Positions 951 through 29,552 of a stretch of 64,000 nt of DNA are shown here, piece after piece. The notes below the pieces were generated by a model, which was not told the DNA's origin, did not search any database, and worked only from the letters and a program-made list of their open reading frames with translations. The stretch's first letter is position 1, and the number at the start of each line of letters is the position of its first letter. Location: NCBI GenBank assembly GCA_965195285.1, contig CBDAFS010000039.1, forward strand, positions 64,001-128,000. Direction: 5' to 3'. Source of the DNA: an uncultured Aminicenantes bacterium (GTDB lineage: Bacteria > Acidobacteriota > Aminicenantia > UBA2199). A program made the position numbers and the translations under genes.

Positions 951-980
951 CTCGAATTGTCTAAATAGTATAGAGAAATT

Positions 981-1817: not shown

Positions 1818-1842
1818 TTTTTTTCTCTGATCTGTTAATCAA

Positions 1843-2754: not shown

Positions 2755-3063
2755 TTTTTATCCTCCTGTCCATTTTTTTGAACCATTAGAAAATTTCTCT
2801 GTATAAAAGAATCATTCTGTAATGGGAAGTGATTTTTTTAACGGTATTGAGTCCAACATCAACCCCTTTAACCATCCAGCAGAGCTCAAATCGTCTGTTT
2901 TTCATTTTTATCAAATTAGCATCATTAGGTTATCAAAATTTTGACTTGCTGTCAAGATTTAAAGTTGACCGGGTATATCTTTTCCCTTTACCTGCACAAC
3001 TTCCTGCTGTATAATAAACTGGTGACAGCCGGATAAGTTCGGTGCCCGAACGAGGTGATAATC

Positions 3064-3468: not shown

Positions 3469-3563
3469 GCTTCAGCATTATATGAAAACAATGAACATCC
3501 CGTGATTGGTAAAAAAGTTAAACTGGTAATATTATTAAGTTATCATGTACAGGTAAGGCCAAG

Positions 3564-4544: not shown

Positions 4545-4617
4545 TATTCTCAGTCCAGATTGACATCCTGGATTATTTGTGTTACTTAAATTTCTATTTA
4601 TTAATCAATTCGGTATC

Positions 4618-6339
4618 ATGTCAAGAAAAACAATTATATTACACTTATTATTTTGCTTTATGCTAACCGCGATATGGTCACCCCCGATTCTGCCTGGAGC
4701 CAGTGAAAAAAGAATTTTTTTTTCCACAATCGATTTGAACCGGAATTTCAGTTTAAAATTGGGTGATGCCACGATACAGCCGGTTGCATTTTTTTCTGAA
4801 TCCCTAACCGGGAAAACAATCAAAAGAACACTCTCCAACACCTATTTTCTCGGATTACCGGAAGAGGGTGTGCAAAAAAATTCGAAAAGATTCACGCGCG
4901 CACTACTTTTTAACTGTGGACTTATATTAATTAGTTCAGTTCATTACTGGATAAAGTACAGTGAATGGATTGAGGATTGGCAGTATGAACTAACCTGGGA
5001 AGACCAAAAAATCCGGTTTTTTTCTATGGAAGCACATCGATTCGATTCAAATCCTTTTTTTACCAACTGGTCCCACGCCCTTTCGGGTGCCGCCTACTAT
5101 AATTTTGCCCGCTATCACCGGTTGAATAAACTGGAATCACTTCTATTTATATTCGGCTCATCTTTATGGTGGGAATATTTTACTGAATGGCGCGAAGTGA
5201 TATCAATTAACGATACGATCTACTCTGGGATCGGCGGGGGACTATCAGTGGGAGAACCGCTGTACTGGATCGGGAGCTATTTTACACAAAAAAAGGGTAT
5301 TGGGAATAAAATACTCGGTTTTATTTTCAATCCGGTTGTAGCCATAAATGATTTGCTGGACAACAAAAAACATATGAGTTATCTCGACCTTCAGCGGTTT
5401 GCCAGGCCTGAATTCAATTTATTCATTGGCACCCAAATGGTATCCACCAGCGAAGATGAAAACAGCACCTCAACTCAATTTCATACCGGTCTCGACATTC
5501 GATTTTATACAATCGAAGGATACAGGGAACCCGGAACCGTAAATAAATTTATTAAAGACACCCTTTTAAGTGAATTATTTGTTGATTTAATCTTTGGAGC
5601 CAATACGTTAGAAGAGCACAGCATCTTTGCTAAAGCAGTTATATTCGGACATTTTATCCAAAAAATAAAACAAGACTCATACAAAAATCTAAAAGGGTAC
5701 AGCTTTTTTGCAGGTGCGGGTTCTGCCTTTGATTATTTTAAAAAAAGGGCTGTTGTTTATTATGACCAATTTGAATATCACTTTGACTTTGCCGGAGGAG
5801 AAGAAGCTCCTCAGCCCACTGAGTTTACTGATAAACTGGCCATAATAAATTTAATCGGGCCGGTTTTCGAACTTTCCATTTACTCAGGCCAGTTCGAATT
5901 CAGATCATCTATCAGTGCTTATATTGATTTTGCTCTATTGAATTCACTGGCTCTAAATGAATATTCAATTGATAATGATCTTTACGAACCACAAATGAAA
6001 ACCACACTTTCACACTATGGATATTACTATGCATTCGGATTTACATTTTCATCTGATATGGATTTGAATTATAAAAATATCCAGTTAAAAGGAAAAATAA
6101 AATACCAATACTACGACTCTATTGAAGGCCTGGACAGGTTTCAAGATGATGTGGAAGATGATTGCAATATCAGGGATACCCGGTTTATGTATAAAATCAG
6201 TCTTGGTTATGCCCTATCAAAAAGTCCGGTAACAATCCAGCTTGCCTATGAACATATTGACCGGGAAGGAACACTCAAGGACATCACCCATACCTTCTCG
6301 GAAGATCGAATTTACGCCCAGCTGAAAATTTCATTATAA
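4618..6339 (+). CDS. DUF3943-like exported/outer-membrane protein
   Basis: Signal peptide; FDSNPFFTNWSHALSGAAYYNFAR...SSLWWEYFTE...SINDT block; beta-strand-rich C-terminus. Confidence 0.55.
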   Translation: MSRKTIILHLLFCFMLTAIWSPPILPGASEKRIFFSTIDLNRNFSLKLGDATIQPVAFFSESLTGKTIKRTLSNTYFLGLPEEGVQKNSKRFTRALLFNCGLILISSVHYWIKYSEWIEDWQYELTWEDQKIRFFSMEAHRFDSNPFFTNWSHALSGAAYYNFARYHRLNKLESLLFIFGSSLWWEYFTEWREVISINDTIYSGIGGGLSVGEPLYWIGSYFTQKKGIGNKILGFIFNPVVAINDLLDNKKHMSYLDLQRFARPEFNLFIGTQMVSTSEDENSTSTQFHTGLDIRFYTIEGYREPGTVNKFIKDTLLSELFVDLIFGANTLEEHSIFAKAVIFGHFIQKIKQDSYKNLKGYSFFAGAGSAFDYFKKRAVVYYDQFEYHFDFAGGEEAPQPTEFTDKLAIINLIGPVFELSIYSGQFEFRSSISAYIDFALLNSLALNEYSIDNDLYEPQMKTTLSHYGYYYAFGFTFSSDMDLNYKNIQLKGKIKYQYYDSIEGLDRFQDDVEDDCNIRDTRFMYKISLGYALSKSPVTIQLAYEHIDREGTLKDITHTFSEDRIYAQLKISL

Positions 6340-6345
6340 ATCAAT

Positions 6346-7053
6346 CTACAATAACTTAAAAACATCCTCTTCCTTCAAGAGTTTTTCAGCACTTCCAGCA
6401 AAGGCAAATTTACCATTGCGCATCACATATCCCCTATCAACATACTGTAATGCCAGCCGGGCATTCTGTTCCACTATTAAAACTCCAATATCTTTTTTTA
6501 AAGCAACAAGTTTTTTAAATAGAATTTTCATATAATTGGGAGACAGGCCAGCAGTGGGTTCATCCAGGATGAGAAATTCCGGCTCTGTAATCAGAGACCG
6601 GGCCAATGAGAGTATCTGTCGTTCTCCCCCTGAAAGACTACCAGCAATACGTTTTAAAAGAGGTTCTAAAATTGGAAAAGTTCTGAGTACATTCTCAATC
6701 CTGGCAGCCAGTACTCCTCTATCTTCCATGGTATATCCACCCATTTCCAGGTTTTCGTGAACCGTCATCCCGGAAAATACCTTGCCTCCATCAGGTACAA
6801 AAGCGATTCCGGATCTAAATAACTCATAGGGTTTATTATGGATGATCGAAAGACTGTCTCTTTTAATGTCACCTTTTTTTATATACCCGTCATATGCATC
6901 TATTATGCCCACCAGGGATCTCAGCAAAGTGGTTTTTCCCGACCCGTTGGGCCCTAAAATAGCAACCATCTCACCTTTATTGATGATCATATTGATATCT
7001 TTAATGATATCAATATTGTTATAACCTGCAGTCAGACTTTTAACTTCTATCAC
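6346..7053 (-). CDS. livF: Branched-chain amino acid-type ABC transporter ATPase (LivF-like)
   Basis: GPNGSGKTT, LSGGERQ, ILDEP, VEQN. Confidence 0.85.
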   Translation of the reverse strand: MIEVKSLTAGYNNIDIIKDINMIINKGEMVAILGPNGSGKTTLLRSLVGIIDAYDGYIKKGDIKRDSLSIIHNKPYELFRSGIAFVPDGGKVFSGMTVHENLEMGGYTMEDRGVLAARIENVLRTFPILEPLLKRIAGSLSGGERQILSLARSLITEPEFLILDEPTAGLSPNYMKILFKKLVALKKDIGVLIVEQNARLALQYVDRGYVMRNGKFAFAGSAEKLLKEEDVFKLL

Positions 7054-7850
7054 TCCTCTCCTCCAAAGTAGGCATCAATGACTTTCTTATCTTCCAGAAC
7101 AACATTTGGTTTGCCATCCGCAATAACTTCACCTTTATCCAGAACAATGACCCGTTGTGCCACTTCCCGGACTGTTTGCATGTCATGTTCGGCAAAAACA
7201 ATGGTTTTACCTGATTTTCTCCATTCCCTAAACAGAGCAATAATTCTCTTCCTGATTTCCGGGAACACACCAGCAGTGGGTTCATCAAATAAAAACAGTT
7301 CCGAATCAAGCGCCCGGGCTCTCATTAACTCCAGCAATCTTCTCTGGCCATGGGATAGATTACCGGCCATTTCATGGGCCATATCATCCAGTTCTGCATT
7401 TTTTAAATACATCCTGGATTCCTCTTCTATTCGTGTACAACTATATTTTATAAAAGGATTTAATCCATAAAAAAGACCTTCTCTTTTTCTCTCTTCCAAA
7501 GCAATTAACATATTATCCATCACAGAAATTCCGGGAAATATTCTTCCAATCTGAAATGTTCGTCCGATTCCCCTTGCTGAAATATTGTAAGGTGAAAGTT
7601 TGACTATGTTTTGTCCCTTGAAATCAATAGATTTTGTATCTCTATTAGCATCCAGATAACCCATGATAACATTGATCAGGGTTGTTTTTCCGCTGCCATT
7701 TGGTCCGATAAGTGCTGTGATGGATTGTTTTTCGATATTCAAATTGAGTTTGCTTAATGCTCTAACACCATCAAAACTTTTACTCAAATTCCGGATGGAT
7801 AAAATATGATTTTCCAGATGATTTCCGTTTTTCGCACTCATTTTTATCAT
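7050..7850 (-). CDS. livG: Branched-chain amino acid-type ABC transporter ATPase (LivG-like)
   Basis: GPNGSGKTT, GRTFQ, LSHGQRR, DEPTAG, EHDM, VIDAYFG. Confidence 0.85.
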   Translation of the reverse strand: MIKMSAKNGNHLENHILSIRNLSKSFDGVRALSKLNLNIEKQSITALIGPNGSGKTTLINVIMGYLDANRDTKSIDFKGQNIVKLSPYNISARGIGRTFQIGRIFPGISVMDNMLIALEERKREGLFYGLNPFIKYSCTRIEEESRMYLKNAELDDMAHEMAGNLSHGQRRLLELMRARALDSELFLFDEPTAGVFPEIRKRIIALFREWRKSGKTIVFAEHDMQTVREVAQRVIVLDKGEVIADGKPNVVLEDKKVIDAYFGGEE

Positions 7851-7860
7851 TTTATAAGAG

Positions 7861-8730
7861 CTATTTCCACTTTACTTTTCCCAATATTCCCTGGGGCCGG
7901 AATATCATCAATATCACCAGGATTAATCCATATAACATCTGTCTGAGTTGTGCGGCAATGGATGAAGGCAATCCCAAAAATCTAAGAGCTTCCGGTATGG
8001 CTATTAAGAGAAAAGCACCCAGAATGGCGCCTCGAAGGGTTCCCATACCCCCAAAAATGACCATCAGCAGAATGGTAATGGATTCCATCACCGTAAAGCT
8101 CGAGGGATCAATAAAAGTGATATAATGGGCATATAATGCACCGGCAATTCCGGCAAAAAATGCGCCGGTCATAAACACCTTCAATTTAAAAAGAGGGGTG
8201 TTTTTTTTCAAAGCCCGGGCAGCTCGCTCATCTTCTCGGATGGCTTTCAAAACCCTTCCAAAAGGTCTTTTTACCAATAATATCAATAGGAAATAAGTAA
8301 TAAAAGCAATCAATGCTACAAAAATCAAATATTGCCAGACCTCACTGAATTCAAATCCAAAAACAGATAAAGCTGGAATACCGGGCAGACCCATGGGACC
8401 CCGGGTAAGAGATACCCAGTTTTTAGCCACCACATAAGCAATGATGCCAAAGCCAAAGGTTGCCAGAGCCAGGTAATCTCCCTTCATTTTTATGGCCGGA
8501 TAAGACACAATGGCTCCGGCAATGGAAGCCAAAATTCCACCTATAAGCATTCCCAGAAGAGGGGGAAATCCCAAATTTAAAGCCAGTAAGGTTGATGTAT
8601 AAGCTCCAACTAATGAAAAAGCAGCATGGCCAAGAGATGGGATACCGGTATAGCCGACTATGATATCAAGACTCATGGCCAGTATGGCATAAATCCCGAA
8701 TATCACTAATATATGTAAAAAATATTCCAC
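7861..8730 (-). CDS. livM: ABC transporter permease (LivM-like)
   Basis: GYTGIPSLGHAAF, GDYLALATFGF, LTRGPMG, FGRVLKAIREDE, RPQGILG. Confidence 0.88.
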   Translation of the reverse strand: MEYFLHILVIFGIYAILAMSLDIIVGYTGIPSLGHAAFSLVGAYTSTLLALNLGFPPLLGMLIGGILASIAGAIVSYPAIKMKGDYLALATFGFGIIAYVVAKNWVSLTRGPMGLPGIPALSVFGFEFSEVWQYLIFVALIAFITYFLLILLVKRPFGRVLKAIREDERAARALKKNTPLFKLKVFMTGAFFAGIAGALYAHYITFIDPSSFTVMESITILLMVIFGGMGTLRGAILGAFLLIAIPEALRFLGLPSSIAAQLRQMLYGLILVILMIFRPQGILGKVKWK

Positions 8731-17771: not shown

Positions 17772-18541
17772 AAAAGAAAAGTCCTGGTTGGTCTTATAAT
17801 GAACTTTTGGTCGCCTTTAATTTGTACTGTAAAATTCCTTTTTCGAAAATAAATTATAGAAAAAAAGAAATAGTTAAGCTCGCAAAATTGATTAATAGGA
17901 CCCCATCAGCAGTTGCATTAAAACTTGCTAATTTTTCAAGGTTTGATCCAGAACTAAAATCCCGTCAAATTTCAGGTATGACGCATGGAAGTAAAGAAGA
18001 AGAAATAATATGGAATGAATTCAATGAAAACCAGGAAAGATTTGTTTATGGGAGTGAGAAAATACTTGCTCATTATAAAGATCAAACACTTGAAAAATCT
18101 TTTGACCTGGATATTGAATTGCTTGTAAAAGATGGAAAAGAACGTGAGGCAATTGTAAAAATGAGAGTGAATCAGAGTTTCTTCAGGAAAATGATTCTGG
18201 CGTCATATAACAATATGTGCTGTATAACCGGAATTTCTATATCCGATTTACTGGTGGCCAGTCATATAATTCCATGGTCTATTGATATAAAAAATAGAAT
18301 GAATCCAAAAAATGGCATTTGTTTAAATGTTTTACATGATAAAGCTTTTGATAAGGGGCTGATAACCATTACTCCGGATTATAAAATAATGATATCACCT
18401 CAATTAAAAAATAATAGGAACAAGTTTTCAGAATTATTTTTCTTAAAATATGAAGAATCTAAAATAATTCTACCACAGCGATTCTTTCCGGATATTGAAT
18501 TTTTAAAATATCATAACAAACACATCTTTCAAAAAAATTGA
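17768..18541 (+). CDS. HNH endonuclease with N-terminal helical domain
   Basis: RVNQSFFRKMILASYNNMCCITG, LLVASHIIPWS, NPKNGICLNVLHDKAFDKG. Confidence 0.9.
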   Translation: MKKKSPGWSYNELLVAFNLYCKIPFSKINYRKKEIVKLAKLINRTPSAVALKLANFSRFDPELKSRQISGMTHGSKEEEIIWNEFNENQERFVYGSEKILAHYKDQTLEKSFDLDIELLVKDGKEREAIVKMRVNQSFFRKMILASYNNMCCITGISISDLLVASHIIPWSIDIKNRMNPKNGICLNVLHDKAFDKGLITITPDYKIMISPQLKNNRNKFSELFFLKYEESKIILPQRFFPDIEFLKYHNKHIFQKN

Positions 18542-19176
18542 ATAAGCAACTAAAAAAATCAAGAAGAATCTTAATAAAAAATTGGGATAAATATAAAAGA
18601 GATTTCATCTGGAGATACTTTAAAGATCCTTATAAAATAATGATTGCTGAATTTATGCTCCAGAGGACAAAAGCCCCTCAGGTAGAACCGGTATATAAAA
18701 ACTTTCTGGAAAAGTATCCTGATGTTTTCATTCTTTCTAGAGCAAAACATAAATCAATTTCAAAATTTACTACAAATCTAGGATTACATGGGAGAAGCCG
18801 GAACTTTATTGAAGCTTCGAAATTTATAATAAAAAAATATACTGGTAATTTCCCATCTACCAGAAAAGAATTGTTAAAAATTCCGGGTATCGGTGATTAT
18901 GTTGCTGGAACTATTCTTACAATATGCTTTAATAAACAGGAATATGTTATAGATAGTAATATTGCCAGATTCATTAATCGTTTTTGGGGCTTAAATTTAT
19001 CAGGAGAAATAAGAAGAAAAAAAATAATAATCTCACTTGCAACAGAATTGTTTAAATATAAAAATACAAGAGATTTATTATTCTGCTTATTGGATTTTTC
19101 AGCCTTAATATGTAAACCCCGAAATCCAGTATGCGAAACTTGTGTTTTGAGAAAACCTTGTTTCTTCTATCAATGA
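18538..19176 (+). CDS. HhH-GPD DNA glycosylase with [4Fe-4S] cluster, Mig/T:G-mismatch type
   Basis: RDFIWR, EFMLQRT, HhH PGIGDY, catalytic IDSN, CKPRNPVCETCVLRKPC; lacks the MutY C-terminal domain. Confidence 0.8.
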   Translation: MNKQLKKSRRILIKNWDKYKRDFIWRYFKDPYKIMIAEFMLQRTKAPQVEPVYKNFLEKYPDVFILSRAKHKSISKFTTNLGLHGRSRNFIEASKFIIKKYTGNFPSTRKELLKIPGIGDYVAGTILTICFNKQEYVIDSNIARFINRFWGLNLSGEIRRKKIIISLATELFKYKNTRDLLFCLLDFSALICKPRNPVCETCVLRKPCFFYQ

Positions 19177-20810
19177 GAATCTTTTTCGGTTTTTAGTTTC
19201 TTGTATTTGAAAAAATCTCCGCTTTCGTCGACGATCCGGCGGTACCAGTCTTCCGGGTAACCGGGGTGTTTAACCTTGTTCAACTCATTTTTGACATTGC
19301 CATCCAGGTATTTGAAAATTAAAAACTCACCCAATTTTTTCCAGCTTTTCACCGTCGATTCAGCTATTTTGATTGAATATTTATTGAGGTATTCCCTGGA
19401 CAGTTGCGAAGACTTTTTATAAAGCTCCAAAGCCGCTTTTTCAATCTCCGGCTGATTGGACATGAAATTTCCTTCCAGCTGACGCTGGACTCTTTGTATA
19501 TCCTGAATCATATCCGAATATCGTGAATAAGCATAATTCGAGACAAAGTTGAAGACCCAGAAAGCCGAATCCCAGTTGAAATGATTGAAATCAGCAGTTC
19601 CCACGGCATAGGCTTTTGGAATCTCGCGGATACTGCAATACATGGGCACATATACAGTGCTATATGTATCATCTACCGAAAACCAGATTATCCCTCCAAC
19701 CACATCCGGAAGCCAGGACCTGGACTGGGTCACAAAAGAAAATCCGGTTTGCTGGGTGGAGGTAGCCCTTTCATTGAAATATTCTACATCATCCACTTTC
19801 CAGGTTAGGGGACGCCAGCGGTAGGGCAATTTATAAGGTCCGGCCCCTACTCCCCGGGTCATATCCAGTTCACTTCCTTCAAAATGATCCCTCATCAGCT
19901 CCATTACATCCCTTACCGATAATTTCTTATCCGGTTTAATCCACAGGGGCATGGGTTGGGCTCCGTCAACTCCCTTGATAAAATCAGATGAAAGATTCAA
20001 GGACGGAGCTACCCGTCTGAACATACTCCAGACTCTGGCTTCACAGAAACGAAGGCCACCGAAATCCAGAGGGGCATAGGCATCGACAAAACTGAAATCT
20101 TCATCCTTTCCTTTAAAATATCCTTTGTCCCTGGCAAATGAAATGACATCCTTGGCATACAGGCAATTTTGTTTATCATTCAAAGGAAACTGCCGGATTC
20201 TGGCCTGATTGGCATGGGCGCAAACATATCCATCCGGAATCAGTCGGGCCACCCAGACTGCCCCTTTGTTATCAGGTCCTTTGCCAATGATCTCCATGAT
20301 CCATACTTCATTCTTATCTGAAATGGAAAACGATTCACCGGAACTGCAATACCCGTATTTTTCAACCAGATCACCAATTATCAATACGCCTTGGCGAGCG
20401 GTTTTGGCCCGCTGAAGCATGATGTACATCAGACTTCCGTAGTCCATAACACCCTTAGGATCCTTCAATTCCTTGCGTCCGCCATAGGTGGTTTCACCGA
20501 TTGCAACCTGATACTCATTGATATTACCGACAACCGAATAGGTCTGTTCAACCTGTTTGATTTTTCCCAAATACTTTCCAGTATCCCATTCATATATATC
20601 CAGAAAAGACCCCTTGATATGACGGGCTGCCGGCGTGTAATACAATTCACCATAGAGGACATGCGAATCTGCCGCATAAGTGATCATGGTACTTCTGTCA
20701 ACTGAAGCGCCCTTGGTAATCAAAAAATTGGTGCATGCCATTAGCTCAAAATCCAACCATAAAACCATTAAAATGAGAATAAATATTGTTTTGAAAATTT
20801 TAGCAATCAT
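19170..20810 (-). CDS. Peptidase family C69 (exported dipeptidase)
   Basis: Signal peptide followed by the N-terminal nucleophile ACTNFLITKGAS...YAADSH; HANQARI; ATG 20810 has a GGAGG RBS. Confidence 0.88.
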   Translation of the reverse strand: MIAKIFKTIFILILMVLWLDFELMACTNFLITKGASVDRSTMITYAADSHVLYGELYYTPAARHIKGSFLDIYEWDTGKYLGKIKQVEQTYSVVGNINEYQVAIGETTYGGRKELKDPKGVMDYGSLMYIMLQRAKTARQGVLIIGDLVEKYGYCSSGESFSISDKNEVWIMEIIGKGPDNKGAVWVARLIPDGYVCAHANQARIRQFPLNDKQNCLYAKDVISFARDKGYFKGKDEDFSFVDAYAPLDFGGLRFCEARVWSMFRRVAPSLNLSSDFIKGVDGAQPMPLWIKPDKKLSVRDVMELMRDHFEGSELDMTRGVGAGPYKLPYRWRPLTWKVDDVEYFNERATSTQQTGFSFVTQSRSWLPDVVGGIIWFSVDDTYSTVYVPMYCSIREIPKAYAVGTADFNHFNWDSAFWVFNFVSNYAYSRYSDMIQDIQRVQRQLEGNFMSNQPEIEKAALELYKKSSQLSREYLNKYSIKIAESTVKSWKKLGEFLIFKYLDGNVKNELNKVKHPGYPEDWYRRIVDESGDFFKYKKLKTEKDSH

Positions 20811-20978
20811 GATTTTTAAAACCTCCTTTGCTTTCAAGTGAATGATCAACGAATTTTGAATACTTAAAAAACGCATCAACTATTTTATCTAAATCAAAAT
20901 CCGAAGTAAAGAAAATAATTTGTTGCAATAGTAAAATATTTACTTTAGAATGAAATATTATTTACATTCATCTTTATC

Positions 20979-22574
20979 ATGAAGAAAATCAAGGGTTATA
21001 ATTTAAAAAAAATTGTTTATCTAGACGGTATACGACTCAGGAATGCAATCCTGTCCAGTCTAGCTTTAATAAAAAATAAAAAGAATTATCTGAATAAAAT
21101 AAATTTTTTTCCCATACCTGATAAAGATGCCGGAACAAATTTTTTCCATACATTGAACTTCATCGTTTCCGAACTATACTTTCTTGAGGATCGTTCGGTT
21201 ACCTTAATGAGCCATCAATTATCCAAATCTGCCCTATCCGCTGCCCAAGGATATTCAGGTACTATTCTGGCCCAGTTCTTTCAAGGTTTTGCCCAGGGAT
21301 TTTCAGGACAGGTCAGAATTTCAACAGTGGATTTTGCGCTTGCTTCACAAAAAGCCTCCAAAGCAGCTTATGCGTCACTCTCCGAACCTATAGAAGGCAC
21401 AATTTTAAGTGTTATGAGAGATTGGGCCAATTCGGTTTCCAAAATCGCCGAACAAACCGATGATTTTGTCGAACTTCTAAATATGAGTTTGCTAGAGGCA
21501 AAACAATCCCTGGCTGAAACAAAAAAAATATTACCGGTTTTGAAAAAGGCCGGTGTGGTTGATGCAGGTGCTCAGGGATTTATTTTTTTACTGGATGGAA
21601 TCCTGAATTTCATAAAAAAAGGAAATTTAAAAGATCTTCGAACTTTATCTCGAAATAATAAATCCAGTCAAGGTCATAAATATGAAAAAAAAATTCACGA
21701 TTATTCAGGTGCTCCGCCAGTAGATGAATTTGGCATCGTGACCGACTCATCGTGTGATCTTCCCGATCATTATTTAATAAATTATCAGATCCATGTAATT
21801 CCACTCAAAATCATATTTGGATCCGAAACCTTTCTGGATAAAGTGCAGATCACTCCAACTGAATTCTATAATAAATCGATCAAATCACCGATACATCCCA
21901 AAACCTCACAACCGTCATTGGCAGATGTCACCCGGCTATTCGATGAGATTGTACCCAAATACAATCATATCCTGTCCATTCACATCCCCCGGGCAATAAG
22001 TGGAACCCTGTCGGTCGTTGAAAAAGCAGCCCAAAAATACGGGAAAAAGATCACCTGCATAGACGGAAAAAATATTTCAGCCGCTTTGGGACTGGTGATC
22101 ATGGAAGCGGTATATGCAATAGAGAAAGATCTATCCCGGGAAAAGGTTATTGATCGAATTGAACAATCAATAGATAATATTAAAATTTTCATTGTTTTGC
22201 CAACGGTAAAATATCTGGTCAAGGGAGGAAGGCTCAGTAAATCCAAGGGATTCATCGGACGTCTGCTTCGGTTGAATCCGATTTTATCTTTTGATACTCG
22301 GGGACATATTGTGCCCCTGTCCAAAGCATTTGGAAACAAAGCAGCCTTGAAAAAAGCATTTAAAATCGTACAACTAGCGGTTAAAGATTATAAGCGAATT
22401 AAATTCATGATTGCCCATGCCAATGCCCCGGTGAAAGCCAGGTGGGTATCGGTCAAGCTGTCCGGATTGTTTCAGCTGCAAGAGGAGATAGAAATTGTTG
22501 AGGTGGCCCCGGTTCTGGGTGTACATGTCGGACCCGGAACCGTTGGATTCGGATTTATCGGTTATCATCAATAA
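20979..22574 (+). CDS. DAK2-DegV fusion (fatty acid kinase FakA/FakB-like)
   Basis: LNKINFFPIPDKDAGTN, EGTILSV, VDAGAQG, then the DegV motifs IVTDSSCDLP, KTSQPS, LVKGGR, HVGPG. Confidence 0.88.
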   Translation: MKKIKGYNLKKIVYLDGIRLRNAILSSLALIKNKKNYLNKINFFPIPDKDAGTNFFHTLNFIVSELYFLEDRSVTLMSHQLSKSALSAAQGYSGTILAQFFQGFAQGFSGQVRISTVDFALASQKASKAAYASLSEPIEGTILSVMRDWANSVSKIAEQTDDFVELLNMSLLEAKQSLAETKKILPVLKKAGVVDAGAQGFIFLLDGILNFIKKGNLKDLRTLSRNNKSSQGHKYEKKIHDYSGAPPVDEFGIVTDSSCDLPDHYLINYQIHVIPLKIIFGSETFLDKVQITPTEFYNKSIKSPIHPKTSQPSLADVTRLFDEIVPKYNHILSIHIPRAISGTLSVVEKAAQKYGKKITCIDGKNISAALGLVIMEAVYAIEKDLSREKVIDRIEQSIDNIKIFIVLPTVKYLVKGGRLSKSKGFIGRLLRLNPILSFDTRGHIVPLSKAFGNKAALKKAFKIVQLAVKDYKRIKFMIAHANAPVKARWVSVKLSGLFQLQEEIEIVEVAPVLGVHVGPGTVGFGFIGYHQ

Positions 22575-22593
22575 TTAAACAAAACAGGAAGGC

Positions 22594-23781
22594 TTAAGTG
22601 GATTTATTAAGTTCCAGACGATTGATGATATGTTGGTATTTCTTTTCAATCACCGGCCAGGAATAGTTGTCCTGAAAAAATTGCACGCCATTTTCACCCA
22701 GCCTGGATCGAATCCCGGGGTTCCCCTGCAACAATAACACAATGGCCTTGAATTCCTCATAATCGGAATACCATAATCCCGCATTGCTGCGTTTGCATTG
22801 ACCCTGGAGTACTTCGGTTCTTCCATTGGCAACCACCGGCTTCCCAATGGCCCAGGCCTCCAATGCCACCATGGAAAGCGACTCAAACTGTGAGGGTATA
22901 ATCAAAAAATCAGATCCTTTCAAGGCATCAAACTTTTCACTGTCAGATACAAATCCCAGATACCTGATTTTCGGGTGATCTGGAATTTCAATCAGTGATT
23001 TCCCCATCAGGACCAGGGTATAATCTATCTTCGTCTCCTCCAAGAATTTTAGATAAAATGAAAGCAGTTCCGGTATTCCCTTGTTTTCATCCAGGCGCCC
23101 GATATAGACAAAATAATTTTCAGGGATTTTGTATTTCTCCCGGAATACCCAAGGCGAAAATGAAGAGGGAATCTCCGAGCCCACACCCACGATATCTCCG
23201 ATTACCGATTCATTTCCCGCCATTTGATTGATCATTGCCTTCTCTTCATGTGAATTGTAAACAATGGCTCCGGGTAAATTAAAAAAATTCTTGAACATCC
23301 TCAAATATATTACATCATCATGTTCGGCAGTGGGAACCAGAATTGATTTTTCCCGAAACCTGGTAATACCTTGAAAAGAATGATAATAACGATATGAGAA
23401 AAAAATGAAATAATCAAATTCCCCTTCCCGGTTCTCCAGTTCTTTGATCAGGGCAGGTACCCTGGGTCCCTCTTCATCCAGCCAGGTTATTTCTTCCTCC
23501 AGGCTGTGTTCGTTGTTGAAAATAAAATTCTGAATTTTCCCGAACCGCTCCGGATCCCGGGTTTGATGGACATTAAAGCGGTTTACCCGGATACCATCCA
23601 CTTGATCCTGACCCGGGGGGAAATGATGCTCCCAAGTAATGTAATCCAGGGCCGTGGTGGTAAAAACTTCAATTGCATAGTATTTTGCCATTTTCTCGGT
23701 AATCAATTTGGCATGATATTCGGCACCCCCATTTATTTCCGAACCGTATCGCTGAACCACAATTGCAATTTTTTTAGCCAT
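22594..23781 (-). CDS. Glycosyltransferase family 4
   Basis: GGAE, YIGRLDENKG, PSQFESLSMVALEAW. Confidence 0.88.
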   Translation of the reverse strand: MAKKIAIVVQRYGSEINGGAEYHAKLITEKMAKYYAIEVFTTTALDYITWEHHFPPGQDQVDGIRVNRFNVHQTRDPERFGKIQNFIFNNEHSLEEEITWLDEEGPRVPALIKELENREGEFDYFIFFSYRYYHSFQGITRFREKSILVPTAEHDDVIYLRMFKNFFNLPGAIVYNSHEEKAMINQMAGNESVIGDIVGVGSEIPSSFSPWVFREKYKIPENYFVYIGRLDENKGIPELLSFYLKFLEETKIDYTLVLMGKSLIEIPDHPKIRYLGFVSDSEKFDALKGSDFLIIPSQFESLSMVALEAWAIGKPVVANGRTEVLQGQCKRSNAGLWYSDYEEFKAIVLLLQGNPGIRSRLGENGVQFFQDNYSWPVIEKKYQHIINRLELNKST

Positions 23782-23845
23782 GATTTAATTATAACACAGT
23801 ACTGGATTCTGTCGAATAATCCATTCCTGGCGGAAAAACAATAGC

Positions 23846-23874
23846 TTTACATTTAACAATAATCTTGCTAAAAT
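23846..23874 (+). promoter_or_regulatory. Sigma70-type promoter of the RiPP cassette
   Basis: TTTACA-17 nt-TAAAAT with an extended -10 TG. Confidence 0.6.
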
Positions 23875-23886
23875 CAAATGATCGTC

Positions 23887-24168
23887 ATGAAACCAACCGC
23901 CAATCCCACGGCCAACCCCACGATAGTACTCAGGGAAGAATTCGACGACTGGGCCATTCTTTTTGATCCCGATACCGGTAACGCTCATGGCATCAACCCG
24001 GTGGGTGTGTTTGTCTGGAAGCATCTGGACGGCCTGCATACTGCCAACCAGATATTGCAGAAGTTGCATGAAAGCTGTGAAACTGTGCCCCAGGATGCTG
24101 AAAAAGATGTAAATGATTTTATTGAGGATCTTGTAAAAAGAGGATATGCCGGATATGAAGCCCGATAA
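23887..24168 (+). CDS. scmD: PqqD-family RiPP recognition element, SynChlorMet ScmD-like
   Basis: NPTIVLREEFDDWAILFDPDTG...GINPVGVFVWKHLDG...DVNDFIEDLVKRG; ATG 23878 is an alternative start. Confidence 0.85.
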   Translation: MKPTANPTANPTIVLREEFDDWAILFDPDTGNAHGINPVGVFVWKHLDGLHTANQILQKLHESCETVPQDAEKDVNDFIEDLVKRGYAGYEAR

Positions 24169-25276
24169 CCTTCATACCTCCATGCGGCTGATGAAGACCC
24201 CGCGAACCGTTGATATTGCTATCACCAACAAGTGCAACCTGCGTTGCACTTACTGCTACCATTTTTCCAGTGCCGGCGATGTTGACGAGGACTTGCCAAA
24301 AGAGGAATGGCTCGGATTTTTCGAAGAATTGAAGCGCTGTGCAGTGATAGATGTTGTTTTGGCCGGTGGCGAGCCTTTCTTCCGCAAGGATTTAAGCGAA
24401 CTGATAGAAGGTATTGTCAAAAACAATATGCGGTTTTCTATCCTCAGTAATGGTACCCTCATTACCGATGAAATCGCCGAATTTCTATCTTCCACGGGAC
24501 GATGTGATTATATTCAGGTTTCCCTTGACGGATCCAAACCTGAAACCCATGATACCTGCCGGGGTAATGGAAATTTTAATCGAGCCATTAAGGGTATCGA
24601 GTGTCTCCGAAAACATTCTGTTAATGTCCAGGTTCGCGCCACGATTCATAAGCATAACGTCACGGATCTTGAGGAAATGGCCCGGTTTTTATTGGAGGAA
24701 ATCGGGCTTGAGAGCTTTTCCACTAATGCCGCTTCCTACATGGGCCTCTTAAGACAACATGTGGAGCAAGTGGGATTAACCGTTGAAGATCGAATGCTGG
24801 CCATGGAGTCCCTTGTCAGGCTAAACAAAAAATATGCCAATCGCATCAACGCCCAAGCCGGACCACTGGCAGAGGCTGCCATGTGGGCCGAAATGAAGAT
24901 CGCCCGCGACCAAGGAAAAAAACAGATTCCCGGTCGAGGGCATCTAACCGCCTGCGGCTGCGTGACGGTGAAAATTGCCGTCCGTGCCGACGGTGCCATT
25001 GTCCCTTGCACCATGCTCAGTCACATGAAACTCGGGCAGATCAATAAGGATGATTTTAAAGCAATCTGGCAAGACCATCCGGAAATGCGAAAAATGAGAG
25101 AACGACGAAATATCCCTTTAAGTGATTTTATATTCTGCCGGGAATGCGAATACATCAATTTCTGCACGGGAAACTGCCCGGGTCTTGCTTACTCGATTGT
25201 CGGGATAGTGAATCATCCGAGCCCGGATGCATGCCTGCGGCGATTTCTTGAGGATGGGGGAAGGCTTCCTTTATAG
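24146..25276 (+). CDS. scmE: Radical SAM/SPASM peptide maturase, ScmE-like
   Basis: MKTPRTVDIAITNKCNLRCTYC, GGEP, SPASM Cys array ending CRECEYINFCTGNCPG...SPDAC. Confidence 0.88.
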   Translation: MPDMKPDNLHTSMRLMKTPRTVDIAITNKCNLRCTYCYHFSSAGDVDEDLPKEEWLGFFEELKRCAVIDVVLAGGEPFFRKDLSELIEGIVKNNMRFSILSNGTLITDEIAEFLSSTGRCDYIQVSLDGSKPETHDTCRGNGNFNRAIKGIECLRKHSVNVQVRATIHKHNVTDLEEMARFLLEEIGLESFSTNAASYMGLLRQHVEQVGLTVEDRMLAMESLVRLNKKYANRINAQAGPLAEAAMWAEMKIARDQGKKQIPGRGHLTACGCVTVKIAVRADGAIVPCTMLSHMKLGQINKDDFKAIWQDHPEMRKMRERRNIPLSDFIFCRECEYINFCTGNCPGLAYSIVGIVNHPSPDACLRRFLEDGGRLPL

Positions 25277-25286
25277 TGAACGATCG

Positions 25287-26414
25287 ATGAGTATCAACAA
25301 AGACCGAAAAGGACGAGCATATCCCTTGAATCAGATATATTTTTACCTGACCAAAGGATGCAACCTGCGCTGCCGTCACTGCTGGATTGCGCCGAAATTT
25401 CAGACCGAAAAGCGTTCCTATCCCGTTCTATCCACGGATCTTTTTCGATCCATCATTGAGCAGGCTAAAATACTGGGCCTTTACGGTGTCAAATTGACCG
25501 GTGGAGAACCCCTGATGCACCCTGATATTCATGAGATTCTCAAGTATATTAAGGAAGAAGATCTTAAACTTACGGTGGAGACCAATGGGATTCTCTGTAC
25601 CCTCGAAATTGCCCAAAAAATGGCGAACTGCAACAATCCATTTGTCTCGGTGAGCCTGGATGGTGCCGATGCCCCAACCCATGAATGGGTGCGCGGAGTT
25701 TCCGGCTGTTTTGAGGAAACTCTTCAAGGCATACGGAATCTTGTTGATGCCGGATTAAAACCCCAAATCATCATGAGCCTCATGCGGCGCAACAAAGATG
25801 AGATGGGGCGTCTTGTACAGCTGGCGGAAAAACTGGGAGCAGAATCGGTCAAATTTAACCTCACCATGCCCATCGCAAGGGGGAAGAAGCTGCATGATAG
25901 CGGAGAGACCCTGACCATTGAAGAGCTTGTAGAGCTGGGCTCGTGGGTGGAGAATACGCTTTCCGCTTCAACCGAACTGCGGCTGGTATACGATCATCCG
26001 ACAGCCTTCCGTCCATTGGGAAAGATGTTTGGAAATAACGGGGATGGATGCAGCCGATGTGGAATCCTTGGCATTCTGGGAGTACTGGCAAATGGATCTT
26101 ATGCCCTTTGCGGTATCGGGGAGAATGTGGCTGAATTGGTTTTTGGGCATGCGGAAACAGAACGCCTGGAGGATATATGGAAAAAGACCGATATTCTAAA
26201 TGAATTACGTGAAGGACTTACAGAGCGCTTCGAAGGGGTCTGTGGAAGTTGTCTCATGAGATACTTGTGCCTGAGAAGCTGTATCGCCCAAAATTATTAC
26301 CAGAACAAGAATCTTTGGGCACCTCATTGGTTTTGTGAAACGGCCAGGGGAAAAGGGCTCTTTCCGAAAACCCGGTTACATTTTTCCAGCTCGAATAACA
26401 ATTTAAATAAGTAA
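25287..26414 (+). CDS. scmF: Radical SAM/SPASM peptide maturase, ScmF-like
   Basis: YPLNQIYFYLTKGCNLRCRHCWIAPKFQ, TGGEP, SPASM CSRCGI...LCGIG...CGSC...CLRSCIAQNYY...FC; likely start ATG 25287. Confidence 0.88.
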   Translation: MSINKDRKGRAYPLNQIYFYLTKGCNLRCRHCWIAPKFQTEKRSYPVLSTDLFRSIIEQAKILGLYGVKLTGGEPLMHPDIHEILKYIKEEDLKLTVETNGILCTLEIAQKMANCNNPFVSVSLDGADAPTHEWVRGVSGCFEETLQGIRNLVDAGLKPQIIMSLMRRNKDEMGRLVQLAEKLGAESVKFNLTMPIARGKKLHDSGETLTIEELVELGSWVENTLSASTELRLVYDHPTAFRPLGKMFGNNGDGCSRCGILGILGVLANGSYALCGIGENVAELVFGHAETERLEDIWKKTDILNELREGLTERFEGVCGSCLMRYLCLRSCIAQNYYQNKNLWAPHWFCETARGKGLFPKTRLHFSSSNNNLNK

Positions 26415-26443
26415 TAGACAATATTGCAAAAGTATAGTATTCT
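26415..26443 (+). promoter_or_regulatory. Candidate internal sigma70 promoter for the precursor peptide gene
   Basis: TAGACA-17 nt-TATTCT, ending 23 nt before ATG 26467. Confidence 0.4.
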
Positions 26444-26466
26444 CAAAGTAGACAAAGATAGCAGCG

Positions 26467-26703
26467 ATGAAATACGAAAAACCATTACTCGTTGAATTGA
26501 ATAATCCGAATATCGCGTATGGACTCTGTGCAAATGGTTCCGGCGACGAAGGGCCTTGTGGATCAGGGACTTCACCAGTTACCAGATGTGTAATCGGTAG
26601 TAACGCTGGCGCGGCTTGTAATTCAGGTAATATCGCGAATAATAACTGTGTGAACGGAAGCTCGGCAGGAGGTCTATGTAACCCTGGCAGCACCGCAAAT
26701 TAA
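26467..26703 (+). CDS. Putative RiPP precursor peptide (78 aa; YEKPxL leader and six CxxG decamer repeats)
   Basis: Cys at residues 21, 31, 41, 51, 61 and 71; G/S/N-rich core; located between the rSAM genes and scmC. Confidence 0.85.
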   Translation: MKYEKPLLVELNNPNIAYGLCANGSGDEGPCGSGTSPVTRCVIGSNAGAACNSGNIANNNCVNGSSAGGLCNPGSTAN

Positions 26704-26774
26704 GAGAACCTCAAACATCCGCCAGCGGTCTTGTATGAAACGATCTGTCAAGCAAAGAAGATGAGAGCCATATA

Positions 26775-27659
26775 ATGGAAGAACCCGAAAAATCCGAACC
26801 AGTGACCGTTCAAAGATCATATCATCTATCATTGAGTGATGGAAACCGATGGTGTTTTTCTGCAGATCACCGCAACACCCATGTGTTAGATAACCTGGCT
26901 CGCATTATGCGACTCAATCAAGGGATCGTAAACGGCTCACCCAGGCTTATTTTCTGCAGTAATGGGTCCAATAGGGGAAAGGGTGCCAACAGGCATACCA
27001 ATACGCATAAGCCCTTTCGGTTTTGGAAACATAACGGTGGACCTGATGTCTTTTGTGAGACAAATGACAACAGAGGACTTGAAATTCAATACTTACATAT
27101 GTGGCATGGCCTTTTGCCTATCTACCGACAAAGTGTTCGTAAGGGAGGACTGGCTATACATGGGGCCTTGACTGAGCTAAACGGCGAAGGATTTTTGATT
27201 ATAGCACCGAGTGGTGGCGGAAAATCAACCTGCTATCACCGGTTTCCTGGTTACTGGCAGCCATTGTGTGATGATGAAGCACTGGTTGTTCTCGACGAGC
27301 AAAAAAAATACCGGGCCCATCCATTTCCAACCTGGAGCGATTATCTTTGGAAACGTTCCCAAAGGACCTGGAATGTTCAGTATTCGGTACCGCTTAAGGG
27401 ATTATTTTTTCTTGAAAAAGCCGACATTGATACAGTCGAATCATTGGGAGAGGGTAAGGCCGTCGTATTAATGAATGCATCGGCCAACCAAGTTTTTGAA
27501 AAATACTATCGAATATTAAATAAAAAAGATCAAAGAACGCTTCGGCAGAGGTTCTTTAAAAATACCTGCCGTATGGCAAAGCAGATTCCGTCGTATCGTC
27601 TGTGTGTCAGCCGTGATGACAAATTTTGGGAAAAGATGGAAAAGGTCCTGGACCGATAA
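26775..27659 (+). CDS. scmC: HPr-kinase-like P-loop protein, SynChlorMet ScmC-like
   Basis: GGLAIHGAL...APSGGGKSTC...LCDDEALV...AHPFPTWSDY. Confidence 0.82.
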   Translation: MEEPEKSEPVTVQRSYHLSLSDGNRWCFSADHRNTHVLDNLARIMRLNQGIVNGSPRLIFCSNGSNRGKGANRHTNTHKPFRFWKHNGGPDVFCETNDNRGLEIQYLHMWHGLLPIYRQSVRKGGLAIHGALTELNGEGFLIIAPSGGGKSTCYHRFPGYWQPLCDDEALVVLDEQKKYRAHPFPTWSDYLWKRSQRTWNVQYSVPLKGLFFLEKADIDTVESLGEGKAVVLMNASANQVFEKYYRILNKKDQRTLRQRFFKNTCRMAKQIPSYRLCVSRDDKFWEKMEKVLDR

Positions 27660-27672
27660 TCAAGGGAAATTA

Positions 27673-27741
27673 ATGAGACCCAATATGAACTATATGGGTC
27701 CCAGCATGAATCCCATCCTGAAAACGGGTGACATCGTTTGA
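27673..27741 (+). pseudogene. Truncated S24/S26 serine peptidase (22-codon N-terminal stub)
   Basis: Translates MRPNMNYMGPSMNPILKTGDIV*, matching the GxSMxPxLxxGD catalytic-Ser box, then stops. Confidence 0.7.
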
Positions 27742-27818: not shown

Positions 27819-28598
27819 ATGAATATATATGTATGTATAAAACAGGTTCCTGATACCGAAGCTGTTTTAAATATTAAAGAAGGCAAGTTTATCAATGAAG
27901 AAAACATCAAATGGATTATCAGTCCCTATGATGAAATTGTCCTGGAATTTGCCCTGCAGTTAAAAGAGAAGAATCCGGACTTCAAGGTCACCCTGATTAC
28001 GGTAGGTCCTCCCCGGGCAGAGAGCACTATTCGCAGTGGTCTGGCCATGGGTGCTGAAAGTGCCATTCATATTGAAGCGAGCGATTACCTTGATCATAAG
28101 ACCATTGCCAAGGCATTGGCCCAGGCCTTGAAAAATGAGGGCGATTTCGGTGTCATCTTCACGGGGAAACAGGCCATTGATGACGATGCGAGTTTGACCC
28201 ATATTTATCTTGCTCAAAGCCTGGATATTCCGGTAGTCACAAATGTTATCGGATTTCAGATGGAAGCGGAGAAAGTCATTGTTGAGAGAGAGATTGATCA
28301 GGGAGCCAGGGAAAAAATCGAAATGGGTATCCCCTGTGTAATCGCTGCCACCAAAGGTATTAATGATGTTAACGAGCCCAGATACGCTACCCTGATGGGT
28401 ATCATGAAAGCCAAGAAAATACCCATTAAAAAAATATCGATTCAGGATCTGGGGATTAAAGATGCCACTCCTACGGTCACACAGGAAAAACTGGAAGCAC
28501 CGCCCGAAAAACCGTCCGGAAGAATCATTGAAGGCGAAGTTACAGAATCCATTAAAGAGCTGGTTAGATTGTTGAAAGATGAAGCTAAGGTATTATAG
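27819..28598 (+). CDS. etfB: Electron transfer flavoprotein beta subunit
   Basis: VCIKQVPDT, GKQAIDDD, NEPRYATLMGIMKAKK. Confidence 0.93.
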   Translation: MNIYVCIKQVPDTEAVLNIKEGKFINEENIKWIISPYDEIVLEFALQLKEKNPDFKVTLITVGPPRAESTIRSGLAMGAESAIHIEASDYLDHKTIAKALAQALKNEGDFGVIFTGKQAIDDDASLTHIYLAQSLDIPVVTNVIGFQMEAEKVIVEREIDQGAREKIEMGIPCVIAATKGINDVNEPRYATLMGIMKAKKIPIKKISIQDLGIKDATPTVTQEKLEAPPEKPSGRIIEGEVTESIKELVRLLKDEAKVL

Positions 28599-28607
28599 GA
28601 GGAATCA

Positions 28608-29552
28608 ATGTCAAACATAGGCGTTTATATTGAGTTAAGAGGAGACGAGTTCAAAAAAGCAAACCGTGAAGCCCTTGGTCTGGCGAGATCAAGTGGAAAA
28701 GATGTATATGCAATTATTTTTACCAGAGACATCTCAGCCTATGAGAATGAATTCAAAGGAATACCCAAAGTCATTCAAATAAAAAATGAGAACTTGACCT
28801 ATCAACCGGATGTATATGCAGCAACCATTGCCAACATAATGAAGGAACATCAATTAAACGACCTTTTAGGGGTTGCTTCCGCTCAGGGAAAGGATTTATT
28901 CCCTCGCATTGCAGCCAATACCGATGGCAGTATCATTAATGACTGCATCGCTGTGGATTTTGATAACCATACGGTTAAAAAACCGGTTTATGCCGGGAAA
29001 CTGATATCCACTTTCAAGTTAGGCGGTGAATTCCGGATTATTACCATCAGGCCCAATGTTTTTCCTGTAAAAGAAAAAGAATCGGACAGCCAACCGGAAG
29101 TAATCGAGACTGGTATCGTGAAAATTGAAGAAAAATCAAAAATTATCGATATAATAAAAAGTGAAACCAAAAAGATTGATTTAACCGAAGCCGAGATTAT
29201 TATTTCCGGTGGAAGAGGAATGAAGTCCAAAGAGAATTTTAAAATACTGCAAGAGGTGGCCGAAGTCCTGAATGCCGGTGTGGGGGCATCCCGCGCAGCA
29301 GTTGATTCCGACTATGCCACTCCGGATATGCAGGTCGGGCAAACCGGAAAAGTGGTAAACCCAAAACTCTATATTGCCTGCGGTATATCGGGAGCCATTC
29401 AGCACTTTGTTGGCATGAAAACATCTAAATTCATTGTGGCCATAAACAAGGATCCGGAAGCACCCATATTCAAAAAAGCGGATTACGGCATTGTTGCCGA
29501 TCTGTTTAAAGCCGTTCCCCTGCTGAAAGAAGAGCTGGAGAAAATTCTATAG
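28608..29552 (+). CDS. etfA: Electron transfer flavoprotein alpha subunit
   Basis: SGGRG, GASRAAVD, QVGQTGK, GISGAIQH, AINKDPEAPIF. Confidence 0.95.
   Translation: MSNIGVYIELRGDEFKKANREALGLARSSGKDVYAIIFTRDISAYENEFKGIPKVIQIKNENLTYQPDVYAATIANIMKEHQLNDLLGVASAQGKDLFPRIAANTDGSIINDCIAVDFDNHTVKKPVYAGKLISTFKLGGEFRIITIRPNVFPVKEKESDSQPEVIETGIVKIEEKSKIIDIIKSETKKIDLTEAEIIISGGRGMKSKENFKILQEVAEVLNAGVGASRAAVDSDYATPDMQVGQTGKVVNPKLYIACGISGAIQHFVGMKTSKFIVAINKDPEAPIFKKADYGIVADLFKAVPLLKEELEKIL

Follow-up and report, generated by a model that had tools for sequence, protein, structure and literature searches.

Between two genes of a SynChlorMet cassette, on a 64,000-nucleotide stretch (positions 64,001-128,000) of contig CBDAFS010000039.1 from an uncultured Aminicenantes bacterium (the window), lies an open reading frame (ORF) for a 78-residue peptide, a candidate precursor of a peptide that is synthesized ribosomally and modified post-translationally (RiPP). 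The ORF occupies 26467..26703 on the plus strand, from an ATG at 26467, the sole start codon in the open frame, to a stop at 26701-26703, and its translation consists of MKYEKPLLVELNNPNIAYGL followed by six Cys-led units. The putative leader (residues 1-20; 26467-26526) begins MKYEKPLLVEL and carries the motif Y3-x-x-P6-x-L8, and the putative core (residues 21-78) is built of six C-x-x-G units. Cys residues at 21, 31, 41, 51, 61 and 71 give five spacings of 10 residues each, Gly stands at +3 in six of six units, and position +4 is occupied in turn by S, T, S, N, S and S. Translation and positions agree in every detail with the initial annotation of this DNA, which had read the ORF as a leader followed by six CxxG units at a 10-residue period.

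A chance origin of the periodic Cys pattern is excluded. Equal Cys spacing arose in 7 of 1,000,000 shuffles of the 58-residue core and a Gly at +3 after every Cys in 17 of 1,000,000. Within the window's own genome assembly (3.28 Mb, 94.9% complete), the peptide frame stands alone among 57,293 stop-to-stop frames of at least 30 amino acids in holding more than four consecutive equally spaced Cys, and alone among 73,076 frames of at least 25 amino acids in holding six C..G within 200 residues or fewer. Tandem Repeats Finder returned no DNA-level tandem repeat at the peptide gene; hence the period is kept at the protein level and does not stem from recent duplication.

The gene order is ScmD-ScmE-ScmF-peptide-ScmC, all on the plus strand, with the peptide gene between ScmF and ScmC. 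ScmD (23878..24168; 96 residues) is a discrete PqqD-like RiPP recognition element (RRE) that scores 132.8 bits on NCBIfam TIGR04248 (cut-off 100) and 58.8 bits on Pfam PqqD. Two radical S-adenosylmethionine (rSAM) enzymes of the SPASM type follow, ScmE (24146..25276; 376 residues; TIGR04250, 618.9 bits, cut-off 400) and ScmF (25227..26414; 395 residues; TIGR04251, 589 bits, cut-off 400). Both retain the full SPASM Cys motif and an intact CX3CX2C, at residue 30 of ScmE and residue 45 of ScmF. ScmC (26775..27659; 294 residues; TIGR04249, 270.3 bits, cut-off 125) is a P-loop protein with a predicted fold like that of phosphoenolpyruvate carboxykinase (PEPCK) and HprK, and a putative peptide kinase. 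The four neighbours named earlier are thus all above their NCBIfam cut-offs, which places ScmD, both rSAM/SPASM enzymes and ScmC within the SynChlorMet system as TIGR04248-TIGR04252 define it.

A 472-nucleotide contig from metatranscriptome run X7 covers 26305-26751 with zero differences, and two short contigs from this run fall inside ScmC. About 94% of the locus is contained in three runs from the study to which X7 also belongs. The contig records presence in an RNA library, a hint of expression that does not prove transcription, strand or level. ScmD, ScmE and most of ScmF are without cover in X7, which by the rule of the search tool is not evidence of absence. The contig (record 15; window 26269-26751) folds back on itself, probably through an artefact of the assembly or the library: its letters 1-447 match 26305-26751 on the minus strand, and its letters 448-472 match 26269-26293 on the plus strand.

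Candidate regulatory signals did not withstand comparison with shuffled sequence. Sigma-70-like sites before ScmD (23846-23874) and before the peptide gene (26415-26443) are part of a total of 17, against 13.2 ± 3.7 in shuffles, and are not taken as evidence. An attenuator or terminator 3′ of the peptide gene was rejected: the fold of 26695-26780 has a z of 0.63, and 146 of 200 shuffles fold equally well.

The ScmA-like peptide family

The initial annotation held that the precursor of this cassette had not been identified. This is not the case, since NCBIfam release 20 already contains TIGR04252.1, 'SCM_precur_ScmA' (SynChlorMet cassette protein ScmA). Residues 3-48 of the window peptide align with profile positions 1-48 of 49 (15.2 bits, E 0.018; 14.2 bits in genome-scan mode), a match that, like those of its relatives, came at a relaxed threshold. 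Five of 16 collected cassette-linked peptides match the model at E ≤ 1, none over its cut-off, and five of ten metagenome peptides match at 17-21 bits; scored individually, none of these 26 (16 + 10) reaches the cut-off. Among 139 family members, 39 match at E ≤ 0.01 (best 4.3e-9), and TIGR04252 is the sole model matched by more than two of the 139. The model shares with the window peptide its cassette, leader and first CxxG units but has 49 positions, whereas the peptide has 78 residues and six units. TIGR04252 covers a narrow part of the family and misses most members, leaving their genes uncalled by automatic annotation. Judged by its sequence, the window peptide is an unannotated, longer and divergent member of the known, uncharacterised ScmA family. 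As a tool for scanning genomes in six frames the model alone is too short: none of five genomes gave a match over the cut-off, and sub-threshold matches appeared in 10 of 14 controls too.

Other searches gave less. Pfam returned zero family matches for the peptide. A word-index homologue search returned zero candidates and was replaced by a profile search. All that the ESM Atlas returned were clusters with no name beyond 'hypothetical protein' (scores 0.89-0.92; recognition under the mark set by the tool), which serve as a lead only. The lasso leader model NF033521 (lasso_leader_L3) is matched by two relatives at 14.6 bits, under its cut-off of 19, and not by the window peptide.

We therefore used a hidden Markov model (HMM) built from the 16 cassette-linked peptides (alignment A1). 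The window peptide scores 74.4 bits on it (E 2.4e-20), a figure to be read as that of one of the model's own seeds. An independent sample came from metagenome contigs scanned with a ScmC alignment, which gave 494 relatives, of which the best 80 loci were kept; near-duplicates among them (for example L110/L111 and L119/L120) mean that the counts below overstate independence. The HMM matches at E ≤ 1e-3 in 49 of the 80 loci, and in 42 the match lies directly upstream of ScmC on the same strand. The scan of Scm cassettes for leader-plus-CxxG peptides that had been proposed as a check thus found them beside ScmC in 35 of the 52 loci with at least 500 bp of upstream DNA; in 4 the peptide lies elsewhere in the locus and in 13 there is none. 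Homologous leader and CxxG-repeat peptides therefore hold the same place in related cassettes, which bears out the assignment of the ORF as precursor of this one.

The leader recurs with the repeats. The YxxPxL motif reported for the window peptide is present, and each of the 50 distinct peptide frames taken from metagenome ScmC loci carries [YW]xxPx[LIVM]. The S/T/N reported at position +4 holds for the window peptide but not for the family, where S and G each account for 25%, T for 13% and N for 12%. L025, the closest relative, shows the identical order D-E-F-peptide-C; its enzymes are 86-89% identical and its ScmC 78% identical, but its peptide is only 39% identical, with the leader (KWEKPILIDL...AYG) and Cys/Gly skeleton kept. 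Conserved enzymes beside a diverged peptide with a kept leader are a pattern typical of RiPP precursors. Elsewhere the position of the peptide varies, as in peptide-D-E-F-C (L035) and D-peptide-D-E-F-C (L037).

The 16-peptide HMM matches only two places in the window's genome, both beside Scm-like cassettes. The other is a second, complete paralogous cassette on the minus strand of contig C42 at about 800-7900 (L041), in the order D-E-F-peptide-C-S26-ABC exporter, ABC denoting ATP-binding cassette. It comprises a fused double PqqD-like protein (213 residues), ScmE-like and ScmF-like rSAM enzymes, a ScmC-like protein, an intact S26 peptidase (L041 3002-3553), an ABC exporter (835-2646) and a 77-residue peptide with a KYEKP leader and 12-residue Cys spacing (4555-4785). 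A third rSAM-rich locus, on contig C14 at about 18000-24200 (L040), carries three ORFs for rSAM proteins of the SPASM type, including one of 703 residues with a ScmC-like domain, together with an S26-like fragment; an ScmA-like peptide was not detected there.

Some cassettes in other genomes are interrupted. At about 9170-9330 of L039 (genome G017, contig C10) a frameshift breaks a cassette peptide whose leader resembles 'KYVAMK...AQGAC', and the ScmC-like gene after it has two in-frame TGA codons; either this cassette is decaying or the assembly is in error. Several more rSAM/PqqD pairs and an intact 96-residue peptide are found in the same 19-kb stretch. In L056 (G382:C312) and L055 (G382:C80) the HMM match to leader-plus-CxxG peptides crosses a stop codon (one TGA, one TAA), and the TGA of L056 is placed where a Cys-containing unit would continue.

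The family is large. A profile search of 1.84 billion representatives returned 1,472 clusters at 50% identity with E ≤ 1e-3, of which 21 reach E ≤ 1e-10. Among the top 150 matches, 138 are at most 150 residues long and all 138 contain [YWF]xxP. Eight of the 12 longer proteins were scanned, and six of these carry unrelated, mostly eukaryote-type Pfam domains and match over the core only; the total of 1,472 hence includes false positives. These six (P0002, P0003, P0004, P0011, P0012 and P0013) are GH20, AKAP7-like, BTB, QSOX, EGF-like and RDM3 beta-solenoid proteins, whose Cys/Gly-rich repeats match the HMM core with E down to 8.6e-31, a compositional or periodic likeness without a leader. Across the family, Cys spacing is 10 residues in 52-58% and 11 in 25% of cases. 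The aromatic leader residue precedes the first Cys by 18-20 residues in 111 of the 138 library peptides and 41 of the 50 metagenome peptides, and residue -2 is G or A in about 75%. The core is hypervariable, keeping only Cys, Gly+3 (85-89%), Ala+6 (39-51%) and the period of 10-11 residues. Taking as marks of the broader family [YW]xxPx[LIVM], a first Cys 18-20 residues after the aromatic, at least three CxxG at a spacing of 10-11 and Scm neighbours, the window peptide has Y3/P6/L8, Cys21 and six units at a spacing of 10, and lies beside Scm genes.

Its sequence, the repeat statistics, the sub-cut-off match to TIGR04252, the homologues in the same position and the RNA-library contig together make it very probable that the ORF is a real gene for an ScmA-type precursor peptide of the SynChlorMet cassette.

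Proposed maturation of the precursor

We put at roughly 0.8 the probability that the locus is best explained, taken whole, by a precursor peptide, its leader-guided cross-linking by rSAM enzymes, a step involving ScmC and cleavage by an S26 peptidase. The discrete PqqD-like ScmD would bind the YxxPxL leader and present the core to the two SPASM rSAM enzymes, which would abstract a hydrogen atom and join each Cys sulfur to a nearby carbon. The likeliest acceptor would be the alpha-carbon of Gly+3, giving six small, unnested C-x-x-G sactionine rings, one per unit; this would be the simplest guess because Gly+3 is near-invariant. Alternatively the beta-carbon of the +4 residue (S/T/N) might serve, giving a ranthionine. 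ScmC, an HprK/PEPCK-like P-loop protein, would probably phosphorylate the peptide or serve an ATP-dependent step. In most cassettes an S26 peptidase would remove the leader, plausibly after a small-x-small motif before the first Cys, and in some an ABC exporter would secrete the product. Signal peptidases follow a -3/-1 rule; from this rule and the G or A at -2 in the family, cleavage of the window peptide would fall after A17-x-G19. Going by analogous systems, the odds that the product contains any thioether may be put slightly above even, and a Cys-Gly(+3) sactionine specifically is a tentative and rather unlikely candidate.

Co-folding of ScmD with the leader scored 0.40 in each of three runs, against 0.20 for the best of three controls, with a partner pLDDT (predicted local distance difference test) of 40-41 and runs agreeing in at least 60% of contacts. 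The tool grades this result weak, a grade that is wrong in more cases than it is right for any guess not already likely; in its calibration 58 of the 80 solved complexes and 2 of the 110 mismatched pairs reached the mark, and scores of 0.60 or less came from 7 of the 80 and from both mismatches. Neither ScmE nor ScmF is extended at its N terminus to hold a fused RRE, in keeping with the discrete PqqD-like ScmD of the cassette. The two enzymes are only 23-25% identical. The nearest solved structure to ScmE is the sactisynthase SkfB (77.8 bits), and those to ScmF are the decarboxylase BlsE (65.8 bits), SkfB (55.2 bits) and PqqE (52.8 bits).

Known systems resemble parts of this scheme. Freyrasin (PapA/PapB) is a ranthipeptide with six repeated Cys-X3-Asp thioether rings; like the window peptide it has six periodic Cys units in one core and a SPASM maturase, and one small ring per unit would be expected in both. 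It differs in its Asp acceptor at +4 and shorter period, and on the PapB model, whose cut-off is 340 bits, ScmE reaches 101.6. Lasso-peptide leaders pair with PqqD-like RREs, and HPr-kinase-like lasso peptide kinases exist. The lasso systems share with the window a YxxPxL leader, a discrete PqqD-family RRE and an HprK-fold kinase in the cluster; unlike them, the cassette lacks homologues of the lasso cyclase and leader protease, and its core is Cys-periodic.

In streptosactin (GggA/GggB), a type II sactipeptide, the SPASM enzyme GggB forms unnested Cys25-Ser28 and Cys31-Gly34 sactionines, according to a review (PMC8172795), that is, i to i+3 rings of which one is Cys-x-x-Gly. As a 14-mer from streptococci with two rings, one rSAM enzyme, another protease and quorum-sensing control, streptosactin differs from the window system, which, as read from its genes, combines two rSAM enzymes with a discrete PqqD and a kinase-like protein and has a peptide of six units repeating every 10 residues. 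The Cys-x-x-Gly sactionine of streptosactin is the best precedent for the proposed thioether. CrpC of Methanococcus voltae, in the accessible portion of its report, installs thioethers in C-X-X-Q/D repeats of a Cys-rich protein, CrpA, and the system is alike in its Cys-rich repeat substrate, leader-like N terminus and adjoining SPASM rSAM enzyme (PMC13692751). Its thioethers lie within C-X-X-acceptor motifs (CAGM, CAVD, CPLV) and are ranthionines (PMC13692751). It differs in its larger protein with 17-residue repeats and in that CrpC belongs to an orphan family, TIGR04463, with a fused RRE; that portion of the report describes no PqqD, kinase or S26 peptidase (PMC13692751).

ScmC has the features of HPr kinase/PEPCK-like proteins, namely the predicted fold and a Walker A GxGKS/T motif that has a His upstream of it and Asp-Asp downstream. 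Its AlphaFold2 model (pLDDT 84.9) finds PEP carboxykinases as best Foldseek matches (E 1.9e-8), a partial likeness with TMq of 0.44-0.53, and H129, G149, K150, T152, D166 and D167 are invariant across 10 homologues. HprK has the PEPCK-like fold in its C-terminal domain, and among its homologues are enzymes that phosphorylate the precursors of lasso peptides. On the strength of the model and this analogy, ScmC is probably a peptide kinase.

Of 53 evaluable metagenome loci, 36 carry directly 3′ of ScmC a gene for an S24/S26 signal-peptidase-like protein (Pfam Peptidase_S26/S24; NCBIfam models for signal peptidase I and the nickel superoxide dismutase (NiSOD) protease); L025 and the C42 cassette have it too. 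In 16 of the 53 related loci there is no match, so the peptidase does not occur everywhere. In the window, only a stub of 22 codons, MRPNMNYMGPSMNPILKTGDIV*, is left of it (27673..27741, plus strand), 85% identical in tblastn over 20 amino acids to residues 8-27 of the L025 peptidase frame. The stub keeps the GPSMNP serine motif and then stops; the other ~190 codons are missing, and the DNA from there to a gene for electron-transfer flavoprotein (ETF) beta at 27819 is an AT-rich spacer. An exporter-type ABC half-transporter is linked in about ten longer loci, including C42, and in the window none is linked. Hence maturation of the window peptide would need the intact paralogous cassette elsewhere in the genome, or does not occur.

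Weighing the explanation

Several observations count against this explanation. At 15.2 bits the peptide falls short of the curated TIGR04252 cut-off of 35 bits, and a first NCBIfam scan at E ≤ 0.01 gave it zero matches. No good Shine-Dalgarno sequence was found before its ATG. The HMM has no match in 13 of the 52 evaluable metagenome loci; in four of these (L058, L060, L093 and L098), as in genome G301, D-E-F-C follow each other so closely that a peptide gene has no space. Upstream in two of the 13 lie divergent Cys peptides with a KWVIP leader, another of the 13 has a candidate at a distance of 2.5 kb, and the G301 peptide, which starts MKYEKP, sits on another contig. X7 is one library kept as contigs, for which DNA carry-over is possible and which cannot rank expression. 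ScmE and ScmF belong to none of the characterised thioether-synthase models, scoring far under the cut-offs: ScmE has 115.4 bits against 625 on StsB, 101.6 against 340 on PapB, 86.6 against 300 on SkfB and 83.9 against 850 on AlbA, and ScmF has 97.3 against 625 on StsB and 75.4 against 850 on AlbA. The sequence likeness of ScmC to HPr kinase/phosphorylase is marginal (phmmer E 0.96), the alignment pairing HG...GxGKS...DD. What chemistry takes place, which part each rSAM enzyme plays and what ScmC acts on would all follow from analogy, and with its peptidase a stub and no linked exporter the window cassette may be in decay.

A rival reading is that the peptide is the substrate but that its Cys do not become thioethers. 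They might instead be turned into backbone heterocycles of the thio-oxazole type, as reported for the Geobacter SbtM system, undergo formylglycine-type oxidation or give an excised Cys-derived cofactor in the manner of pyrroloquinoline quinone (PQQ) and mycofactocin; the two rSAM enzymes would then carry out two different reactions, in favour of which ScmE and ScmF are only 23-25% identical. The best non-Scm NCBIfam matches of the enzymes (WgkB, NirJ, AhbD and MftC, 116-156 bits) are not thioether synthases, the nearest solved relative of ScmF is a decarboxylase, ETF alpha and beta genes stand 3′ of the cassette, and a discrete PqqD is found in the PQQ and mycofactocin pathways as well. The ETF genes, however, are not conserved, as tblastn against L025 and other loci shows; the ABC exporter and leader-type peptidase present in many cassettes suit a secreted peptide better than a cofactor; and the repeated CxxG unit matches known thioether motifs. 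We regard this alternative as improbable.

A similarly low probability attaches to decay of the cassette, in which a real gene would give a peptide that is made yet never matured, or would be silent, the C42 cassette being the functional system. The 22-codon stub at 27673-27741, where 36 of 53 related loci keep the whole gene, fits this, as do the weak ribosome-binding site and the intact D-E-F-peptide-C-S26-ABC exporter set on C42. Yet the four enzyme genes of the window are intact, far over their cut-offs and complete in their Fe-S Cys; all four are preserved in the closest relative, at 78-89% identity; the peptide gene is covered by a contig from an RNA library; and the peptidase goes unmatched in 16 of 53 related loci too. 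That the ORF is no RiPP precursor at all, being a chance frame or an unmodified Cys/Gly-rich metal-binding mini-protein within the cassette, would agree with its zero Pfam matches and zero word-index homologues and with the way Cys/Gly-rich repeats of unrelated eukaryote-type proteins match the HMM core. The shuffles and whole-genome counts exclude chance, leader, spacing and genomic position are conserved across dozens of cassettes, and the curated model TIGR04252 matches the family, so that we consider a non-precursor ORF very improbable.

Literature, significance and surroundings

In the searchable literature we found no paper naming SynChlorMet or TIGR04248-51, although subscription journals and supplements may still hold a description, and no experimental paper for or against rSAM action on the peptide. 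The accessible portion of an rSAM mapping paper (PMC9062424) does not contain the terms searched for, that of RRE-Finder (PMC7470986) matches solely in a mention of SCIFF, and that of a SPASM review (PMC10114670) lacks 'Scm', its passages on Haft concerning other systems. Precord et al., in the text available, list 3,421 clusters putatively for sactipeptides or ranthipeptides, with six new groups, among which the ScmA-like family could be (PMC10288494).

The SynChlorMet cassette is a curated, uncharacterised RiPP system, and the family is far larger than its four-genome cassette name (Syntrophobacter, Chlorobium, Methanocella and NaphS2) suggests. The window peptide is not a newly discovered missing precursor and would be no surprise to a specialist who knows the TIGRFAM; it is a well-defined and attractive target for RiPP chemistry. 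What is added here is how broad the family is, its 10-residue rule, a kinase-like character for ScmC, the S26 peptidase as a usual and the ABC exporter as a frequent partner, and the degraded peptidase of the window, which together turn a 'conserved hypothetical cassette' into a concrete, testable hypothesis. The window offers a clean test substrate: its six CxxG units repeat with perfect regularity, the four enzymes are intact, a close relative whose core has diverged allows comparison, and the same genome contains a second, complete cassette.

A bolder and doubtful proposition is that ScmA-like peptides form a very large, experimentally untouched RiPP class of 'beaded' poly-thioethers, with one unnested Cys-x-x-Gly sactionine per 10-residue unit, further modification by a second rSAM reaction and an HprK-like kinase, and removal of a lasso-like YxxPxL leader by an S26 peptidase. 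Equally doubtfully, such a class would span on the order of a thousand 50%-identity clusters in Thermodesulfobacteriota, Myxococcota, Chloroflexota and others. If true, this combination of features would be matched by no described RiPP class.

The best DNA matches to the locus are marine-sediment metagenomes; small word shares in runs X6, X8 and X9 were not used for habitat claims. Directly 3′ of the cassette, ETF beta and alpha genes occupy 27819-29552 on the plus strand and score below the cut-offs of the mycofactocin-associated ETF models (alpha 155.5 against 240 bits, beta 69.7 against 200 bits). They were rejected as part of the cassette, since tblastn finds none beside the closest relative L025 or in other loci. 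Just upstream, on the opposite strand, lies a GT4 glycosyltransferase gene (22594-23781), likewise not assigned to the cassette. In L025 (4167-9882) the cassette is followed by an S26 peptidase and then by polysaccharide-export genes for a beta-barrel porin, a Wza-like Poly_export/SLBB protein and a Wzz/GNVR tyrosine-kinase-like protein. Together with the GT4 gene of the window, these may indicate a loose association of the cassettes with envelope or exopolysaccharide loci.

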